A DNA stretch of 11,818 nucleotides from Candidatus Sigynarchaeum calidifontis (GCA_030587475.2 JAUQYZ020000149.1:1-11818), one strand, 5' to 3'. Positions 2,685-11,817 are shown, counted from the first letter of the stretch. A program made the numbers and translations. The notes: generated by a model not told the origin, from the letters alone.

Positions 2685-3569
2685 TCATTCCCCGTCCTCT
2701 TTCGTCGCGGCCGTAAGATATATCTTGATCTGTTCTTTCATCTGGTTCACGTCTCGGGAAAGGCCGAACATGTCCGCAAACTTGTCAGTTGTCGTCAATT
2801 CCTTAGAACGGCCTTTCGGCACGGCTTTCACGAGTCCCATCTCGGTAAGCTCTTTCAAGTGCTCTCCCGCAGCTGAGCGAATCTTTGAAAGGTCGGACTG
2901 GAGGATTGGTTGCTTGGCCGCGATGATCGTTAGCGTCCGCATCACTGCTTCACGAATCAGCCCGCCGGTGGCGAATGACTTCACGGAGGACGTGAATTCG
3001 GGCTTGAGTTGCAAGATATACTTGTCCGCCACCTTGGCAATCTCCAAGGCGGTGGATCGTTCGAGGTACTCCATGGCCAATTTGTCAAGCAACTCCTCGA
3101 CGAGTTTTTTCCCGATGTTGAGCTTGACAGAGATTTCCTCGGCAGACACTGCTTGACCAGAAACGAAGAGCACGGCCTCGATCTGGTTTTTCGAGAAATC
3201 TTTCTTGTATTGTTCCGGGCTTGGTTTCTGGGGTTTCCCGGGTGCTTGCGGCTTGATCTCGTCCAGCACTTCGTCGTCATCGATGTCGTTGGGCATGCTG
3301 CCTTCCGCCAACTGCTGCTCCACAGACCCAACGGGGGCGGGTGCCATGTGGGCTTGGGCTTCACCAACTGGCACCCCGCTGGCGGGTGTGATGGGGATTT
3401 CATCAGTGGTTGCCCCGCTTTCAATGGCTGTACCGGCCAGCAAGGCCGCACCTGTTGGCGCCCCGCCTGCTTGTACTTTCTTGTCAGATGGGGGCTTCTT
3501 GCCATCGGGTATCGCGGGTTCCATTTGTTCTGGTTGACCTTCTATTGGTTTCCGTTCCTCGTCACTCAT
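2685..3569 (-). CDS. scpB: Segregation and condensation protein B (KITE subunit) with ~120-aa disordered N-terminal extension
   Basis: Tandem winged-helix ScpB motifs: IEAVLFVSGQAVS...LEIAKVADKYILQLKPEF...REAVMRTLTIIAAKQPILQSDLSKIR...HLKELTEMGLV...GRSKELTTTDKFADMFGL. Third gene after smc-scpA. Start re-assigned to ATG 3569 (MSDEERKP) because GTGATG precedes it and this removes the overlap with scpA. Confidence 0.93.
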   Translation of the reverse strand: MSDEERKPIEGQPEQMEPAIPDGKKPPSDKKVQAGGAPTGAALLAGTAIESGATTDEIPITPASGVPVGEAQAHMAPAPVGSVEQQLAEGSMPNDIDDDEVLDEIKPQAPGKPQKPSPEQYKKDFSKNQIEAVLFVSGQAVSAEEISVKLNIGKKLVEELLDKLAMEYLERSTALEIAKVADKYILQLKPEFTSSVKSFATGGLIREAVMRTLTIIAAKQPILQSDLSKIRSAAGEHLKELTEMGLVKAVPKGRSKELTTTDKFADMFGLSRDVNQMKEQIKIYLTAATKEDGE

Positions 3570-3597
3570 CGCGGCATCACGAGAAAGCATAGGTCTT

Positions 3598-4779
3598 TCA
3601 AGGTTTCCTGACATACATGTCTGCAAGCTCCTCTTCTTGCACCACGTCGATCTTGTCCCGGTTCCGCAAGAACATGAGAGTCATGAATAGGCGTGCTTGC
3701 TCGAACCGGTAGCCATATCGATCCTTTTTTTCGACGCGCGGTTTGAGGTCGTGGAAGTAGGAAACTTGCTTGTCCGGGCTCTTCTTTATACCCTCGTATA
3801 TGATATCAAGCCAGCGCTGGAAGGTGTCCTCAATGCGCTCCTTGCCGAGCAGTGCCTTCCGGATGCTCTCGGGGAGCATCTTTTTCATGCGGATTTTCTT
3901 GGCCTCCTCCGCTTTGGCAATGCCGGCAGCCTGTTGCTTGGCGAGTTTTTGGGCTTGTTTCTCGCGCTTGCGCATGACCTCGATGATCGCCGCCCGCATG
4001 GAGTTTATAAAATCCTCCTGGGTGGCGATGGCCCGGCCAGCGCGCAACGGCTGTGAAATGGTGCTCGGGATGTTCCGTCGCAGCGCCTCCTTCTTGCGCT
4101 CCTCTTCTTCCTTTGCTTGCTGCTCGAGCACTTGCGTTATCTTGTGCCGGTAGATCTTTGCAGCAGCATGCACGGCAATTCCCGAGACCTTGAAATCGAT
4201 GTATTCCTCCTTGAACATCTCGTTGAAGAATTCTGAAAGTAATTTCGCGAGATCGTACTTGGCAAAGTCGATCTTGTCGATCACGTCGGGATCGAGCAAA
4301 CTGCGGAAATAATCGTTTTTTTGCCAGAATTTGGCAGTGCCAGCTTCGCCCGACTCCAAGGCTCGCATGAGAGCTTCCTCGTCCTCCGATGCGCTCGCTT
4401 CTTGATCGCCGGCGGGAGCGGGAGGCTTGCTTTCACTTGCAAGAGGTGCGGCTACTGCACCAGTGTTTATATCCTTTCGGGATTCCACATTGAGAGGCGT
4501 TTCTGCCGGTTCGCTTTCGATTGAAGTGGGTGCTGGCATCTTATCGATAATCTGATCAGACGACGGGGTTGCGCTCTTCGTTTGCTTCACCGGCTTCGCT
4601 GGCTTCGCAATGGCAACAGGCGCTATGAATGGCACGGCGGTGTCGGTCGCTGCGGGGGAGACATCCACGGATCCGATATCGAGCGCTGCTTGCTTCGGTT
4701 CCTTTTTCTTGCGCTGCAGCGTGGCCTCGCCTCCCGCACCCGCAGGCGCGAGGTCCGGTTTGTCCTTTTTTTTACCCAC
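3598..4779 (-). CDS. scpA: Kleisin / segregation and condensation protein A with ~150-aa disordered N-terminal extension
   Basis: N-kleisin-like helical block YDLAKLLSEFFNEM...IDFKVSGIAVHAAAKIYRHK and C-terminal winged helix ARLFMTLMFLRNRDKIDVVQEEELADMYV, both matching archaeal ScpA. Located between smc and scpB. GTG start with a strong SD (AAGGTGAT) upstream. Confidence 0.88.
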   Translation of the reverse strand: MGKKKDKPDLAPAGAGGEATLQRKKKEPKQAALDIGSVDVSPAATDTAVPFIAPVAIAKPAKPVKQTKSATPSSDQIIDKMPAPTSIESEPAETPLNVESRKDINTGAVAAPLASESKPPAPAGDQEASASEDEEALMRALESGEAGTAKFWQKNDYFRSLLDPDVIDKIDFAKYDLAKLLSEFFNEMFKEEYIDFKVSGIAVHAAAKIYRHKITQVLEQQAKEEEERKKEALRRNIPSTISQPLRAGRAIATQEDFINSMRAAIIEVMRKREKQAQKLAKQQAAGIAKAEEAKKIRMKKMLPESIRKALLGKERIEDTFQRWLDIIYEGIKKSPDKQVSYFHDLKPRVEKKDRYGYRFEQARLFMTLMFLRNRDKIDVVQEEELADMYVRKP

Positions 4780-4794
4780 GCGCGATCACCTTGT

Positions 4795-7700
4795 TCAGGA
4801 AGCTGTACCCTTGTCCTCGTCCTTGAGCATGTCATCCATGGACTTGTCCCCGGGGGCGATTTCCATCTCGTCCATTTTTATGCTGAACACGTCGGTGATG
4901 GAATCCCGCATCGACACGCCGTAGATCTTGTCGGCGTTGACGATGTTCTCCTCGCGGTGGCTGATGACGATGAATTGGGACGACAAGGAGAATTCCTTGA
5001 TGACCATGGAGACACGATGCACGTTCGGGCCGTCCAGCGCCGCGTCGATCTCGTCCATGACGTAGAACGGCGAGGGCTGGAAGTGCTCCACGGCGAAGAT
5101 GAATGACAGCGCCACGAGCGTCTTCTCGCCACCCGACAAGGACTCGATGCTCGTGATTTTCTTGCCGCGTGGACGGGCCTCGATCACGATGCCGCCCTCG
5201 AAAGGCTTCGCGGGATTTTCCAGGATCATCTTGGCGATGCCCCCGGGCGAGAGTTTCGTGAAGACCTCGCTGAAGTGCAAGTTGATCTCGTTGAACGCCC
5301 GCATGAACTGCCGGGTCTTCTCGAGCTCGATCCGCTCGATATTTTCGAGGATCGCTTTTCGCTCGCGCTGCAATGATTGGCGGCGCAAGTCAATGTCATC
5401 AAACCGGTTCTTGACGGCGTCGTATTGCTCGATGCTCTTGAGGTTGACCGGCTCGAGTGCCTTCTTTTCCTCGGCGGCCTTGGCAATGTCGGTTTTGATG
5501 CCCGTGTCCGTCCATCCTTCCAGAACCTCGGGCAGGGCGCCGAATTGCTTGGATTGCTCGTAAAGCTCCTCGATCTTGGCCGTGATCTCCTTCTTGCGGT
5601 TTTCGAAATTGGATAGCTTGTTGGTGTTCGTGCCAAGGGTCGTGTTGAGCTTTGAAAGCTCGTCTTGCAGCTGTTTTTGCCGCTCCCAGACCGATTGTTT
5701 TTTAGCATTTAGGCCCGAGATCTCGTTGACGACGTCGTTTTTCTTGTCTTCGAGGCCCTTGATCGAGTTACCGAGCTCGGCGATCTTCTTGTCGCCCTCC
5801 TTGAGCTGGGCGTTTATTTTATCCATCTCGCCGTTGATCTCGCCGATCTCCTTTTCCCGTTGTATCATGGCCGTGAGATCGGCATGGCGGTTTTGCTTCT
5901 TTTGCAGCTCCTTGTTCTCCTCGTCCAGCCGTGTTCGTAGATCCTTCTGCACCTGGAGCATGTCATCCTTCTGGCGCTTCAAGTTCTGGATATCCTTTTC
6001 CTTTTCAGCTTTGCTTGCCTCGATTTTCTTTATCTCCTCATCGAGGATCGTGATTTTTTCATCGTTGTTCTTGATTGTTGTATTCGAAGCGGTGATTTCT
6101 GCCTCGTGCTCCTCGATGTCCTTGATGAGCTTTTGGACTGTCTGCAGGCCCCGGATCTTGTCCTGGATGCCTTGCAAGGTCTTGGTTTTCTCGTCGATCT
6201 CGGCGTTCAGCTTGTTCTGAATCTCCCAGAATTCGTCTTTCTGCTTGTTCTTCTCGTCGATCTTGGTCTGGATACTTGCTTTCTCTTTCGAGAGTGAATC
6301 GATCTTCTGCTGGTTATCAGCGATGACCTTGTTCTTTTCCTCGATGCTCTTTGTAAGATCCTCGATCTGTTGGTCAGTACTCTTGATCTTTGACTCGATG
6401 TTCTTGAATTCCAGCGTGGATTGCTTTAAATCTCCCTCTAACTTGGTCTTGTTCACGGAGACCGCGCTGATATCGTCCAGCATTTCCGACTTTTTCTTAT
6501 CGAGCTCATGCAGCGCGTTGATCTGCTCCGTATTCCGCGTCATGGACAGCTTTCGCAGCGACGTGTGCACTTGGCTCATGATATCCATGAGATCCTGGAT
6601 AAATGAATTGAAATTCGCGGCGTTGTCCTTGACGAGTTTGTCCATGTTCTTTTGTACCTCGTCCTTGAGGATCTTCATGGACTCGTCGTAGTTATCGAGG
6701 AACATGTCGAGATTCGCGAACGCGTGCTCGAGATCCTCGGTCTTGCCATCCTTCGCCAATGACTTTATGGTCTCGATGAGCGACACGATATCTTTAACGT
6801 AGAGGTTGAAGTCGTTCATCGAGTTTTCGACGGCGTCCGTTCCGCTGGCCTGGATATCCGCGCTGAGCTCGCTCACACCGGTCTTGTAATTCTCGGTGAG
6901 CATCTCCAGGTTGGTCACGACACCGACGATTTCTTGCTCGGCGCCATCATATTCCTTTTGCGAGTTTTCTATACTCTTTTCGATTTCCTCGCGCTCTTTC
7001 TTGATGTCGGCGAGGAGTTTATTCTTTGTATCAAGTAAATCTTTCGTCTTCTCTAGTTCCTTGGTGATGCGTTGGATTTCTTCGTTGAACTTGACCTTGT
7101 TGACCTCGAACGTCTTGGCATCGCGCTTGAGCGTGTTGATTTGCTTGTCGAAATAATCCTGCTCGGACTTGGCGACCTGGATCTTGGACTTGCTGTCGTT
7201 GATCTGTTGATCGTATTTGCTCAATTGGGAACGGAGCTGCTCGATCTCCGTCTCGAAGTTTTTTTGTTTCTGGGTCTCTTTCTTGATCTCGGTCTTGATC
7301 TTTTCTATCTCGCCCTGAAGATCCTTGGCCTCTTTATCAGCCGCAGCCATTGCTGCGTTGATGTCCTCGTTCTTGTCCTTGAGGAGCTTCGACAAGTCCT
7401 TTTCAAGATTGGCTTTCTTGGACTCGAGCTTCACTAGGCGATCCTTGGTCATCTTGAGCTCGGTCTCGAGCGACGATTTCTGCGACGACGACGTGTTGAG
7501 GCGCTTGTTGAATGCATTCAGCTCTTGCTGGAAGATCGTGATATCAGACTCCAGCTTGGCGACCTGGTTCTCTTTATCCTGGATCTCGGTCTTGGTCTTG
7601 GAGATCTGGATGTCGAGGGCCTCGACTTCCTCTTGAACCTTTGCAAGCAATGCATCGTAGGTATCGCCTTTCCCAAGTTTCTCTTGCTTTTCGACCAGCG

Positions 7701-8694
7701 CTTGCTTGCGTTCTTGCATCTTGTCAAGATTCTCGTTCAAGAAACTAAGCTCGGTCTTTTTCGAGGAGAGTTCCGATCGCTTGTTCGAAATCTGGGTTTC
7801 GAGATCGTTCCGGCTGGTTTCAAGACCCTCGATCTTGTGCGTGAGATCGGTCATCACGGCATTTTCTTTGTCGATATCATTTTGCGTGCGGGTGATGTCT
7901 TCCGTGATTTCCTCTATTTTTTTCTTCGTTTCGCTGATAAAGATGTTGACTTGTTCCTCCTCGTCCCGCAATTTCTTGATACCAAGGGCGATAAGCCGCG
8001 CGTTGAGTTCCTTGATCTTGTTATCGAGCTCGATCCATCGCAATGCATCGTTCTTTTCCTTCTCAACGGCCTTGAGCTGGCGGGCAACTTCTTGGAATAT
8101 AGCCTCGAACTTGACGAGATCTTGATCGGCTTTCTCGAGTTCTTTAAGTGCGGCGTTTTTTTCATCATCGAACTTTTGCAACCCGACGAGATCCTCGATG
8201 AATATGCGCCTGTCCTCGGGGCTCATGTGCGTGAGCTCGACGATCTTGCCTTGCAAGATGAAATTGAACCCGTCGGGATCGACGTTGGCCAGGGCTAGCT
8301 TGAGCAAGATCTCTTCCCTGGTGCAGCGCGTGCCGTTTATGCGGTACGTGCCCTTCCCCTTATCGTTCACCTCGCGCGAGATTATGAGGTCCTGACCCGT
8401 GTAGCCGGGGAACAAGTTCTGCGAGTTGTCGAAGACGACGGTCACTTCCGCAGAGGTCGCGGGCTTCTTGGTCTTGGTTCCGACGAAAATCAAATCCGTC
8501 AAGTTCTCGGCGCGCATGGTCTTTTTACTGAGCCGGCCAAGGGCGAAACACAAGCCATCGATGATGTTGCTCTTGCCCGAGCCGTTTGGCCCGATGATGG
8601 CTGTGAACCCTTTGTCGAGTTTAACTGATACGGTCTGGTCGCCGAAACTCTTGAAGCCTTTGAAGATGATTTCCTTGATATATGTCGATCCCAT
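4795..8694 (-). CDS. smc: Chromosome segregation SMC-family ATPase (1299 aa); canonical heads but no recognisable hinge domain
   Basis: GFKSF, Walker A GPNGSGKSN (aa 35-43), Q-loop FILQG, PVNLKSIEQY, signature LSGGEK (aa 1186-1191), Walker B/D-loop FYVMDEIDAALD, H-loop FIVISHR. About 950 aa of heptad-rich helix lie between the heads. Followed by scpA and scpB. Confidence 0.95.
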   Translation of the reverse strand: MGSTYIKEIIFKGFKSFGDQTVSVKLDKGFTAIIGPNGSGKSNIIDGLCFALGRLSKKTMRAENLTDLIFVGTKTKKPATSAEVTVVFDNSQNLFPGYTGQDLIISREVNDKGKGTYRINGTRCTREEILLKLALANVDPDGFNFILQGKIVELTHMSPEDRRIFIEDLVGLQKFDDEKNAALKELEKADQDLVKFEAIFQEVARQLKAVEKEKNDALRWIELDNKIKELNARLIALGIKKLRDEEEQVNIFISETKKKIEEITEDITRTQNDIDKENAVMTDLTHKIEGLETSRNDLETQISNKRSELSSKKTELSFLNENLDKMQERKQALVEKQEKLGKGDTYDALLAKVQEEVEALDIQISKTKTEIQDKENQVAKLESDITIFQQELNAFNKRLNTSSSQKSSLETELKMTKDRLVKLESKKANLEKDLSKLLKDKNEDINAAMAAADKEAKDLQGEIEKIKTEIKKETQKQKNFETEIEQLRSQLSKYDQQINDSKSKIQVAKSEQDYFDKQINTLKRDAKTFEVNKVKFNEEIQRITKELEKTKDLLDTKNKLLADIKKEREEIEKSIENSQKEYDGAEQEIVGVVTNLEMLTENYKTGVSELSADIQASGTDAVENSMNDFNLYVKDIVSLIETIKSLAKDGKTEDLEHAFANLDMFLDNYDESMKILKDEVQKNMDKLVKDNAANFNSFIQDLMDIMSQVHTSLRKLSMTRNTEQINALHELDKKKSEMLDDISAVSVNKTKLEGDLKQSTLEFKNIESKIKSTDQQIEDLTKSIEEKNKVIADNQQKIDSLSKEKASIQTKIDEKNKQKDEFWEIQNKLNAEIDEKTKTLQGIQDKIRGLQTVQKLIKDIEEHEAEITASNTTIKNNDEKITILDEEIKKIEASKAEKEKDIQNLKRQKDDMLQVQKDLRTRLDEENKELQKKQNRHADLTAMIQREKEIGEINGEMDKINAQLKEGDKKIAELGNSIKGLEDKKNDVVNEISGLNAKKQSVWERQKQLQDELSKLNTTLGTNTNKLSNFENRKKEITAKIEELYEQSKQFGALPEVLEGWTDTGIKTDIAKAAEEKKALEPVNLKSIEQYDAVKNRFDDIDLRRQSLQRERKAILENIERIELEKTRQFMRAFNEINLHFSEVFTKLSPGGIAKMILENPAKPFEGGIVIEARPRGKKITSIESLSGGEKTLVALSFIFAVEHFQPSPFYVMDEIDAALDGPNVHRVSMVIKEFSLSSQFIVISHREENIVNADKIYGVSMRDSITDVFSIKMDEMEIAPGDKSMDDMLKDEDKGTAS
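5605..6264 (-). repeat. Degenerate 90-aa-period internal repeats in the C-terminal Smc arm
   Basis: aa 811-850, 901-940 and 991-1030 align without gaps (KIDEKNKQKDEFWEIQNKLNAEIDEK / DIQNLKRQKDDMLQVQKDLRTRLDEE / EISGLNAKKQSVWERQKQLQDELSKL). Hand counts against the first unit: 13/40 and 11/40 identities. W823 and W1003 are exactly 180 aa apart. Confidence 0.6.
7243..7767 (-). repeat. Degenerate 97-99-aa-period internal repeats in the N-terminal Smc arm
   Basis: aa 310-340 vs 407-437 give 11/31 identities. aa 342-385 vs 441-484 contain ISKTKTEI / IEKIKTEI. Each unit includes a short coil break (LGKGDTY / LLKDKNEDI). Confidence 0.6.
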
Positions 8695-8755: not shown

Positions 8756-9142
8756 TCAGAAGATCTTCGAGCATTCCTCCATGACGAGCTTCCCCACCCG
8801 GGCGAATTCTGCCCACCATTCCTGCGACCGGTTTGATACCAAGATCAGGTCGAGGAAGTTCGTGTTAATACAATAGATTTCATCTTTCCGGGCCTTTACC
8901 TTCTCTTTCCAAATCTCTGACAGGATGGTCGTGGCCGGGATCTTCTTCTGTGCTGCTTTCTGGATATCGCCGCCTTCTTTTTGCACCTTGGTGACGTGCT
9001 GGAATTGGAGCTCCTCTGCCTTGTATTTCATGTCCTTGCATGACATGACGATTTCGAGAGGCTTGTCCTTTCCGAACTTGCAATTTCTTCGCCACGAGCA
9101 CGGTTGGCACCACTGCTCGAACGATATCGTGAATTCAGAAAG
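8756..9142 (-). CDS. Small hypothetical protein with an N-terminal C-x2-C-x5-C-x13-C putative metal (Zn or Fe-S) motif; start codon unresolved
   Basis: The track ORF starts at ATG 9046, but the frame is open upstream to a TAA at 9175-9173 and reads ...LSEFTISFEQWCQPCSWRRNCKFGKDKPLEIVMSCKDMKYK... There is no in-frame ATG/GTG/TTG in this extension. The 5' coordinate given (CTT at 9142) is approximate. Confidence 0.65.
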   Translation of the reverse strand, partial: LSEFTISFEQWCQPCSWRRNCKFGKDKPLEIVMSCKDMKYKAEELQFQHVTKVQKEGGDIQKAAQKKIPATTILSEIWKEKVKARKDEIYCINTNFLDLILVSNRSQEWWAEFARVGKLVMEECSKIF

Positions 9143-9568: not shown

Positions 9569-9620
9569 TGATCTCACCATTGATCACCCGGAGCCTCGCT
9601 CCATACAACAGAAAAGTCAC

Positions 9621-9805
9621 GCAAGGCGAACCATGTCGACAAGCGAAAAATCGGTGTGTTGTACTCGTTCATTGCCGATCGAGCTTTGCGTGAGATTTTC
9701 ATCGATTTTTCCTTTCTAACGAAAAAAAACGAAGCAAGGCGCATCATGTCGTCAAGCAAAAAAGCGGTTTGTCCGGTATGCTCGCTGCCGCAAGAATTAT
9801 GTGTT
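9621..9805 (+). repeat. Degenerate direct repeat, 72-nt units at 9621-9692 and 9734-9805 (113-nt offset)
   Basis: Ungapped hand alignment: 48/72 nt identical, 33/39 over the first 39 nt. Confidence 0.85.
9633..9719 (+). CDS. 28-aa upstream ORF (MSTSEKSVCCTRSLPIELCVRFSSIFPF), a diverged copy of the aIF1 N-terminus; leader peptide or duplication remnant
   Basis: ATG 9633 to TAA 9717-9719. 13 of the first 20 residues are identical to aIF1 (MSSSKKAVCPVCSLPQELCV). Same upstream context, GCAAGGCG-N4-ATG. Confidence 0.5.
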   Translation: MSTSEKSVCCTRSLPIELCVRFSSIFPF

Positions 9806-10093
9806 TGCAAAGCCGTCAGCCAGGAAGAAAGCAAAATCAAGGTCAGGACCGACAAGCGGAAGTGGGGACGGCTCGTCACGCTCCTGGAATTCAGCGGCAT
9901 GGCCAACGTTAACCTCAACGACATCGCCCGCAAGCTCAAGACCAAGGCAGCTTGCGGCGGGACCATCGACGGGAACGTCATCGAGCTACAAGGCGACCAC
10001 ACGTTCAGCGTGCGGAACTGGCTCAAGGAAATGGGATTCGAGGATAGCAATATCCAAGTGACGAGAACCGTCCACACGGGCACCAAGCATTAG
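9746..10093 (+). CDS. sui1: Translation initiation factor 1 (aIF1 / SUI1 family), 115 aa
   Basis: Archaeal N-terminal CPVCSLPQELCVC motif and SUI1 core IKVRTDKRKWGRLVT...LKTKAACGGT...IELQGDH...LKEMGF. Start re-assigned from 9656 to ATG 9746. Confidence 0.95.
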   Translation: MSSSKKAVCPVCSLPQELCVCKAVSQEESKIKVRTDKRKWGRLVTLLEFSGMANVNLNDIARKLKTKAACGGTIDGNVIELQGDHTFSVRNWLKEMGFEDSNIQVTRTVHTGTKH

Positions 10094-10617: not shown

Positions 10618-11817
10618 CTAGGAGGTGATCACGGCGGATATCGTCGCCTCGCCACCCTCCCACGTGTAGATGGTGACCTTGATCGTGTCCCCGATTGCCA
10701 GGGCCGTTCCTGGCCAGGCAAAGTCCACGATACCGCTGGAACTCTGGAGGGGCACCGTGCCACCGATATTGACTGGCTCGTTCCTATTATACGGAACTAC
10801 CCAGTACGTCTGGCCCAATGCCACGAGCTTGATGATATCGATGGTCATGTTGATGCTCTTGCCCACGGTACCCGCGTTGTAGGCGGATATCTGCAGAATG
10901 CCACCACTTTGCGCGCTGAGATATGGCAACGTGACCTCGAGCGCGGCCATCGGATTCTTGGTTACTTTCACCACGGTGCTATCGTTCACCGCCGCCGTCC
11001 CGACCCGCAAGAGCGCGTCGTCGGTGGAGTTGAAGTACCTGACCCCAGCGGACGCGTAGTGATACTTGAGGACGACCGTTTCCTGCACGCCGATCGTGCG
11101 GTTGTTCAAGCCAAGGTACACGTGCGAGTTGTTCAAGTTGATCTGGCTGCTCGAGTTGATCCAGAGCCTCGTGAGCGTCGTCGGCACGCTTCCCACGTTT
11201 TTAACACTCACGAGCACGGTCTCGTTCGTGAAGGCGTACGTGAGCTGGTTCTGCGGCAAGATCTTGATCCTCTCGCCGCTGGCGATGGTCTTGATCTGGG
11301 CACTGTCCGCGGCGACCACGTCGTTCTTGTTATCGATGGCGTACACGGATACCTGCTGTATAGCATCGAGCTTCAACGCGCCGCGGTTGATCCGGATCGT
11401 CCGGGTCTGGCCGGGGTCAAAAGAATAGCCCTGGCCACCCTCGATGACCCACCCGCTGTACGTGCTCCCGTTGACGCGCACCTCGCTCAACCACAGCTTC
11501 TTGATCCCCGTGTTCTTGACCTGCACGCGGATCGTGCCGTTGATCCACGCCACGCTCGACGCGAAGTTCACGGGCAAGAAAGAGCGGTATCGCGTCATCT
11601 CCGGCTTCGAGAAGTCGACCAAGGAGTGATTCTTGGCGAACACGTTGTCGTAGACGAGATCCGACTCGGGGAGCGTGATGAAATCCTCCGTGAATGTCAT
11701 GGCAGCCTTATCCTTGCAGAAGGTGACGGTGAACGAGTCGCTCACGCCCTCGACCGTGGTCGCGTTTACCTTGACGACGTCGCCGACGGCGAACGACTGG
11801 TTGGACGCGATAACGCT
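10618..11817 (-). CDS. 3' part of a large extracellular glycoprotein with tandem beta-sandwich (archaeal pilin/FlaG-like or Ig-like) domains; start lies beyond the window
   Basis: The frame is open from 11817 (SVIASNQSFAVGDVVKVNATTVEGVSDSFTVT...), so GTG 11745 is internal. Repeated motifs VQVKNTG / VSVKNVG / ISAYNAG and FAVGDVVKVNATTVEG / LAIGDTIKVTIYTWEG. Rich in V/T/N/S, with 12 NxS/T sequons counted. Confidence 0.75.
   Translation of the reverse strand, partial: SVIASNQSFAVGDVVKVNATTVEGVSDSFTVTFCKDKAAMTFTEDFITLPESDLVYDNVFAKNHSLVDFSKPEMTRYRSFLPVNFASSVAWINGTIRVQVKNTGIKKLWLSEVRVNGSTYSGWVIEGGQGYSFDPGQTRTIRINRGALKLDAIQQVSVYAIDNKNDVVAADSAQIKTIASGERIKILPQNQLTYAFTNETVLVSVKNVGSVPTTLTRLWINSSSQINLNNSHVYLGLNNRTIGVQETVVLKYHYASAGVRYFNSTDDALLRVGTAAVNDSTVVKVTKNPMAALEVTLPYLSAQSGGILQISAYNAGTVGKSINMTIDIIKLVALGQTYWVVPYNRNEPVNIGGTVPLQSSSGIVDFAWPGTALAIGDTIKVTIYTWEGGEATISAVITS

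Follow-up and report, generated by a model that had tools for sequence, protein, structure and literature searches.

A gene for an Smc protein that lacks the hinge domain lies at positions 4795 to 8694 on the minus strand of an 11,818-nucleotide stretch of DNA from Candidatus Sigynarchaeum calidifontis (GCA_030587475.2, JAUQYZ020000149.1:1-11818), hereafter "the window", meaning the whole stretch that was analysed. In our preferred reading, to which we assign a probability of about 0.65, this gene and its neighbours for a kleisin and ScpB encode a functional Smc-ScpAB paralogue in which the hinge has been replaced by a duplicated helical hairpin that dimerises and closes the ring. In current loop-extrusion and entrapment models, the hinge provides constitutive dimerisation and DNA binding and, more recently, a gate for obstacle bypass. 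A natural Smc-ScpAB without a hinge provides an experiment of nature on which SMC functions require this domain. A preliminary description, made from the sequence alone, had proposed that this Smc lacks a hinge and has a kleisin and a ScpB of its own. This proposal is supported by the head models, by the negative searches for a hinge, and by a gene order that is the same in five of five relatives.

The gene and its parts, as delimited by motifs, family alignments, profile comparison and AlphaFold2 (AF2) models, are the following:

4795..8694, minus strand: smc, hinge-less short form (P0001), 1299 residues, SMC_N over residues 5–1264
8185..8694, minus strand: N-terminal half of the head, residues 1–170, with Walker A and Q-loop; motifs invariant in 11 homologues
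6952..8184, minus strand: N-terminal arm helix, residues ~171–581; continuous helix in AF2, no Pro
6532..6951, minus strand: helical apex module in place of the hinge, residues 582–721; family alignments and apex profile
6766..6936, minus strand: apex repeat unit A, residues 587–643; hhalign of A against B
6736..6753, minus strand: tip loop, residues 648–653, AKDGKT including G650; AF2
6568..6738, minus strand: apex repeat unit B, residues 653–709; hhalign of A against B
5455..6531, minus strand: C-terminal arm helix, residues 722–1080; AF2 helix 722–839
4795..5454, minus strand: C-terminal half of the head, residues 1081–1299, with signature motif, Walker B, D-loop and H-loop; motifs and homology

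The head is that of a bona fide Smc, as its motifs had initially suggested. GFKSF, the Walker A sequence GPNGSGKSN, LSGGEK and the Walker B/D-loop sequence DEIDAALD are all present, and all are invariant in the 11 homologues. A Pfam scan placed SMC_N across residues 5–1264 with 163 bits. The NCBIfam model TIGR02168 passed its cut-off (586 bits; cut-off 567), and the archaeal-type model TIGR02169 gave 637 bits, under its cut-off of 729. Among solved structures, the best match was the Pyrococcus Smc head (5xei, E 2e-121), followed by bacterial Smc and then by eukaryotic SMC2/3/1/4. The heads are 31–34% identical to those of the canonical Smc from the same genome (31% for the segment of residues 1–170).

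The two genes that follow smc in the same direction encode its presumed partners:

3598..4779, minus strand: ScpA-type kleisin (P0002), 393 residues; matches to solved ScpA domains, conserved position
2685..3626, minus strand: ScpB, a kite protein (P0003), at most 313 residues; PF04079 and TIGR00281

P0002 starts 15 nucleotides downstream of smc, and P0003 comes next. ScpB is clearly recognisable (PF04079 at 115 bits; TIGR00281 at 90.7 bits, passing the cut-off of 89.2), and translation probably begins at an internal ATG, near 3590 or 3614. For the middle gene, solved ScpA domains were matched in the expected order: a phmmer search against solved structures aligned residues 167–271 with the ScpA N-terminal domain 6ivh_A (E 6e-5) and residues 320–389 with the C-terminal winged helix of ScpA in 4i99_C and 5xns_C (E 0.04). 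The adjacency of scpA and scpB to smc that had been read from the sequence is supported. Both proteins start with low-complexity extensions of ~150 residues (P0002) and ~140 residues (P0003), rich in Ala, Pro, Glu and Lys, which do not align with the homologues in long-form operons (described below). The order smc-kleisin-scpB was found in 5/5 relatives examined, with a kleisin homologue directly after smc and then ScpB at 47–55% identity.

Searches for the two familiar apex structures were negative. Neither SMC_hinge (PF06470) nor Rad50_zn_hook was detected in P0001 by the Pfam scan, even at E ≤ 1. An hhalign comparison of the apex profile with a profile of 28 canonical hinges gave a probability of 0.2%; as a positive control, the very divergent hinge of the Smc5/6-like SMC from the same genome gave 96.5% in this test. 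A residue count of the translated open reading frame (ORF) reproduced every position listed in the preliminary description: Cys occurs at positions 49 and 124 only, Pro at 36, 78, 96, 140, 159 and next at 1055, with none in 160–1054, and G650 corresponds to nucleotides 6745–6747. No CxxC motif is possible at the apex, since there is no Cys beyond residue 124.

Two AF2 models of the central region were made, both as monomers. Model 1 (residues 480–840, 11 sequences) had a mean predicted local distance difference test (pLDDT) score of 87 and was all-helical, consisting of a helix at 481–648, a turn at 649–651, a helix at 652–718, a break at 719–721, and a helix at 722–839. The pLDDT was ~95 in the arms (~95 for 481–580 and ~96 for 722–839) and 72–80 between ~580 and 720. 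Model 2 (residues 550–760, 48 sequences; mean pLDDT 80) was likewise all-helical, with helices at 551–647 and 654–759; the loop at 648–653 was its sole non-helical stretch. The models thus predict one long helical hairpin with its tip at residues 648–653, and the turn that had been expected around G650 is in place in both. Because the models are helical and the hinge-profile test was negative with a working control, the centre of P0001 is concluded to carry neither an α/β hinge nor a zinc hook. In particular, no hinge fold was seen in residues 500–800, where one would have contradicted the original proposal.

Fold searches with Foldseek against the PDB (model 1) and with VIA-align wide (model 2) returned only generic long helical hairpins, including the MukB elbow, coiled-coil pieces of Smc and Rad50, dynein stalks and PrgA. 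The best Z score, 11.3, does not reach the range in which comparisons of helical folds are meaningful, and no specific relative of the apex was present among these matches. An ESM Atlas feature search with residues 575–725 gave best scores of 0.85, to unnamed clusters only. (PF24161, which is annotated on many of the homologues, is CCDC39; this match was discarded as coiled-coil noise.)

The apex is a distinct module of ~135 residues (582–721), flanked by the collar motifs QKEY(E/D)G and SLRKL..TRNTEQIN (MTRNTEQIN). In the family alignments, these two are the most conserved motifs of the entire central part. The collars, at 582 and 719, lie at equal distance from the predicted tip at ~650, which supports the register of the AF2 hairpin. 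When residues 587–643 were aligned with residues 653–709 by hhalign, the probability was 98.2% (E 3e-14, 57 columns), compared to a maximum of 5.6% for seven arm segments used as controls. This comparison indicates that the apex is an internal duplication of a ~57-residue unit.

The composition of the module also sets it apart from the arms. The bulky hydrophobic fraction is 0.32–0.39 in the apex versus 0.21–0.25 in the arms, and conserved bulky-hydrophobic columns make up 35–38% versus 22%, corresponding to about one more conserved hydrophobic position per heptad. This extra conserved face suggests that more than two helices bundle together. The net charge of the apex is −13 in the window protein and between −12 and −21 in all 48 family members examined, while canonical hinge regions average about +2. 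Such strong acidity makes DNA binding by the apex unlikely, judging by its sequence. Conservation is higher in the apex than in the adjoining arm segments; the tip loop is acidic throughout the family, with a variable sequence. The central segment had initially been described as amphipathic helix throughout; it is indeed all-helical, but it is not plain amphipathic helix, being a conserved, internally duplicated and acidic module.

The family occurs in two lengths. The window protein is a short form of 1299 residues, compared to ~1485 residues for the common long form, which has 97 additional residues after residue 484 and 90 after residue 763 of the window protein. These indels are matched, as each of the two coiled-coil strands carries one of them. 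Estimated from the head boundaries and the total length, the arms measure ~470 residues in the short form and ~550 in the long form, compared to ~330 in canonical Smc.

Together, these features suggest how the complex might work. The ABC head of the Smc has all its catalytic elements, and the ScpA-like kleisin and the kite protein ScpB have been kept as its presumed partners. Tandem duplication of the ~57-residue helix supplied the two strands of the hairpin, and two hairpins would pack through their extra hydrophobic face into a four-helix bundle, which, judging by the sequence pattern, probably closes the dimer. The bundle would join two Smc proteins at the apex, so that the SMC-kleisin ring is closed as it would be by a hinge, and ATP-driven engagement of the heads would act on DNA lying between the long arms, with no need for a hinge that binds DNA or serves as a gate.

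Several points weigh against this reading. The four-helix bundle was deduced from composition, and a compact intrachain bundle is compatible with the same results. The AF2 confidence in the apex was just 63–80, and the models are monomers. The matched arm indels centre on residue ~624, while the AF2 tip is at 650; we attribute this discrepancy to the uncertain placement of gaps in a coiled coil. Neither SMC_ScpA (PF02616) nor any other Pfam model matched P0002, and the family is known from sequences and predicted structures alone. A homodimer prediction with two copies of residues 560–760 gave a score of 0.14 (mark 0.42), which counts neither way.

We also considered the possibility that the apex does not dimerise at all, so that the Smc pair would be joined only through the ATP-engaged heads and the kleisin, with both long arms free, or the protein would act as a single rod, with no closed lumen in either case. 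This is unlikely. In its favour, both monomer models show the apex as a simple hairpin, its tip loop is variable, and its high acidity would make two copies repel each other unless hydrophobic contacts dominate. However, the apex is better conserved than the adjoining arm segments, and the extra hydrophobic position per heptad would be superfluous in a lone two-helix hairpin. To our knowledge, the well-studied SMC-like proteins all dimerise, either at the apex or along the arms, which also counts against a non-dimerising apex.

It is less probable still that the apex serves as a docking module for another protein, either instead of or in addition to homodimerising. The idea arises because the module is also found in non-SMC proteins, such as P0040 (1179 residues, no Pfam domain), where it matched residues 69–236 with a probability of 98.6% (E 1e-15). 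P0040 ends in a long Lys-rich tail, and such tails might bind DNA. In several genomes of one family, frames of 925–1290 residues also give a second apex match, weaker than the first. However, no second apex protein was found in the genome of the window at E ≤ 1e-5, most genomes with a hinge-less Smc have a single match, and no adjacency was seen. P0040-like proteins could be partners of the SMC apex.

The same double-unit module was observed in P0040, P0043, P0045 and P0039, all of them non-SMC and with no Pfam domain; P0040 likely has a second copy near residues 340–480. The genomes with second apex matches are G133, G135, G137–G139 and G141–G143.

Ring closure by the duplicated hairpin is proposed for a family that is widespread among relatives of the window's host. 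With the central 281 residues as the query, 11 proteins with 46–89% identity were found in independent Asgard assemblies. Full-length short forms are 64–91% identical and come from at least 10 independent assemblies. A pattern scan of genome contigs for related loci found just one close relative. A search of 1.8 billion proteins with the apex profile gave 33 representatives, among them proteins of ~1470–1490 residues that have SMC_N and no hinge, and a full-length search gave more than 110 hinge-less clusters, with PF06470 in none of them. The sources of these clusters include Lokiarchaeia and Promethearchaeia, and one cluster is represented by a protein from Loki's Castle sediment.

At the genome level, the apex was present in 132 of 400 genomes of the phylum, with 130 of these among the 154 genomes of the window's order and two among the 246 outside it. 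Within the order, it was found in 13/14 genomes of family f3 and 114/135 of family f4. The hinge-less family extends across an entire order of Lokiarchaeia. A hinge-less smc is present on the closed chromosomes of Ca. Harpocratesius repetitus and the cultured Ca. Lokiarchaeum ossiferum (UYP46603.1; 6,035,313 bp). Among named organisms, Ca. Sigynarchaeum/Sigynarchaeota are closest to the window genome by its proteins.

In a tree of the head domains, the hinge-less proteins form one clade (support 100/100), in which the short and long forms are sisters (100/99 and 99/96). The clade nests among the canonical archaeal Smcs (96/98 with Asgard and DPANN sequences) and lies near the canonical Smcs of Lokiarchaeia, a grouping that was not resolved (86/83). 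The tree included a single Smc5/6-like sequence and no eukaryotic SMCs, so that the relation to SMC1-4 is outside its scope. The Smc5/6-like P0006 from the same genome falls on a very long separate branch, far from the hinge-less clade. An Smc5/6-like identity was rejected on the basis of this tree, which puts the clade within canonical archaeal Smc.

The preliminary description had also raised the question of a second, hinge-bearing smc in the genome, and one was found. Contig C182 encodes a canonical Smc of 1192 residues with a hinge scoring 101–105 bits and ScpB next to it, and contig C49 encodes an Smc5/6-like SMC with a weak hinge. Since a canonical Smc-ScpB is present in the same genome, the hinge-less protein is a paralogue, and the hinge-less complex arose as such. 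In three genomes (G135, G138 and G143), a single closed chromosome carries both the canonical and the hinge-less gene, showing that their coexistence is not a binning artefact. What is new in the window is the short form, lacking matched segments of ~90 residues in both arms, and its coexistence with a canonical Smc.

A strong canonical hinge was found in only 26 of the 154 genomes of the order, while 118 had only the weak, Smc5/6-like hinge. In four genomes with an estimated completeness of 100%, the sole matches to canonical Smc (E ≤ 1e-10) were the two head halves of the hinge-less protein. Most relatives have thus lost the canonical Smc, and across most of the order no condensin-type Smc remains apart from the hinge-less protein.

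Several further observations were made on the other SMC loci. The canonical smc on C182 (L015, 739–5080) is directly followed by scpB, with no kleisin in between; a second ScpA-like kleisin is encoded on contig C88 (L014, 895–1866) and matches the same solved ScpA domains as P0002. In the region 5569–7122 of L015, a 147-residue ORF copies only the SMC N-terminus (SMC_N positions 1–50) and sits beside a gene for an AAA_14/DUF4143 ATPase just upstream of the canonical smc; this arrangement looks like a duplication of the 5′ end of smc around an inserted gene. The SMC encoded on C49 (L016, 4563–8060) has 1165 residues, a hinge of 28–32 bits, a VSEGQKS signature motif and DEA in Walker B, and none of its neighbours had a Pfam match to a kleisin or kite. 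Nearly every genome of the order has an Smc5/6-like paralogue. In two genomes of genus g17 (G162, contig C72; G163, contig C96), strong canonical hinge matches of 91–100 bits occur in open frames of only 238–247 residues. These may encode hinge proteins that stand alone, or they may be what is left of a canonical Smc that was lost.

It is very improbable that the protein, rather than being a chromosome-folding condensin, acts in repair or defence like the ATPases Rad50/SbcC, RecN or Wadjet and only happens to resemble Smc. A hairpin apex without a hinge is the body plan of Rad50 and RecN, and in MukBEF and Wadjet II/III the hinge channel is lost and the arms are long (10.1101/2025.03.17.643644). 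However, the protein scored far below the cut-offs for Rad50 (112 against 1087), RecN (TIGR00634; 62 against 408) and ASRP (NF045487; 182 against 300), it has no CxxC, and the window ORFs include no nuclease gene. Its presumed partners are a kleisin and ScpB, and the gene is single-copy, near-universal in the order, and kept where the canonical Smc was lost. The chance of an artefact, whether through misassembly, gene decay or a hinge so divergent that it escaped notice, is negligible, for although the window is a contig (C112) of a fragmented 4.99-Mb metagenome-assembled genome (269 contigs, 89% complete, 5.2% contamination), the same architecture recurs in at least 10 short-form assemblies, in more than 110 long-form clusters and on closed chromosomes, the frame is open, the motifs are invariant, and the hinge profile test was negative with a working control. 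These same independent assemblies and closed chromosomes, with the open frame and invariant motifs, exclude the misassembly of the centre of the gene that had been named as a possible refutation.

Compared to canonical Smc-ScpAB from Pyrococcus and B. subtilis (5xei, 5xns, 4i99, 3zgx), the complex has in common the ABC head, a predicted long antiparallel coiled coil, and ScpB encoded alongside, together with a putative ScpA-type kleisin. The canonical proteins have the PF06470 hinge and arms of ~330 residues, whereas the present family has an acidic duplicated hairpin and arms of ~470 or ~550 residues, and the window ScpA and ScpB differ by their low-complexity N-terminal extensions of 140–150 residues. 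With Rad50/SbcC and RecN, the family shares arms that end in a hairpin with no globular hinge, but the window protein has no zinc hook and no Mre11/SbcD partner, and its head and partners are of the Smc type. RecN dimerises via its coiled coil.

An engineered precedent exists in B. subtilis Smc(Zh), in which the hinge was swapped for the zinc hook of Pyrococcus Rad50 and which was reported to be functional (Burmann et al. 2017, PMC5344682), indicating that the hinge can be replaced by another dimeriser. Both are Smc-ScpAB complexes with a small non-homologous apex element instead of the hinge; Smc(Zh), however, is man-made and held by a Zn-CxxC hook, while the present protein is natural, with a Cys-free apex that is conserved throughout an order. 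Ocean metagenomes contain natural "hinge-less" SMC homologues that were assigned to Actinobacteria and have been described as abundant and monophyletic in the accessible part of one report (Sussfeld et al. 2025, PMC12153180). These also have heads and coiled coil and no hinge. They are bacterial, and that part of the report gives no link to an ScpAB operon; the likeness is one of description only, and the present family belongs to archaea, its hosts are known and its apex domain is defined. A hinge channel is also missing from MukBEF, Wadjet II/III and Acetobacter Smc, which have unusually long arms (10.1101/2025.03.17.643644), following the same trend of lost hinge gating and longer arms, but they keep a hinge-type dimerisation domain, of which the present family has none.

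Asgard genomes with more than one SMC-kleisin-kite set have been reported, and there are indications that the complex as a whole was duplicated once more (van Hooff et al. 10.1101/2024.01.07.573240; Yoshinaga and Inagaki PMC8665677); the accessible portions of these two sources do not mention hinge loss for the extra complex. The archaeal SMC related to Smc5/6 differs from the present protein, which groups with canonical Smc and has an ScpB-like rather than an Nse1/3-like kite. Full-text literature searches found no description of a hinge-less Asgard Smc.

The hairpin-bearing arms are ~1.4–1.7 times the usual length. The cultured Ca. Lokiarchaeum ossiferum carries the family, so that the protein can be purified and tested directly, and the window genome, in which hinge-bearing and hinge-less complexes coexist and each has a kleisin and ScpB to itself, allows a side-by-side comparison within one organism. 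A bolder proposal, which we regard as tentative and rather doubtful, is that the family represents a chromosome-organising SMC motor with neither a hinge nor a DNA-binding apex, acting as the sole condensin-type complex in most Lokiarchaeia, its arms closed by a reversible acidic four-helix zipper or not closed at all. If so, hinge-DNA contact and hinge gating would be dispensable for SMC function, and a second, structurally different condensin would exist in archaeal relatives of eukaryotes.

The following small gene lies just upstream of smc in the same direction:

8756..9046, possibly to 9112, minus strand: small Cys-cluster ORF, 96 residues; conserved upstream in some relatives

In L029, a near relative, the identity is 92%, and a 41% identical copy lies directly upstream of the long-form smc in G149 (L034, 12501–12797). 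It was not found in four other smc loci and had no Pfam match; it is a possible accessory gene. Further upstream, 9656–10093 on the plus strand encodes aIF1/SUI1 (PF01253, 58 bits) and overlaps a spurious minus-strand ORF at 9574–10086. The minus-strand ORFs at 1608–2498, 242–913 and 10618–11745 belong to no Pfam family. The first of these has hydrophobic segments at both ends and is probably a surface-anchored protein, and the last is 70% identical in L029.

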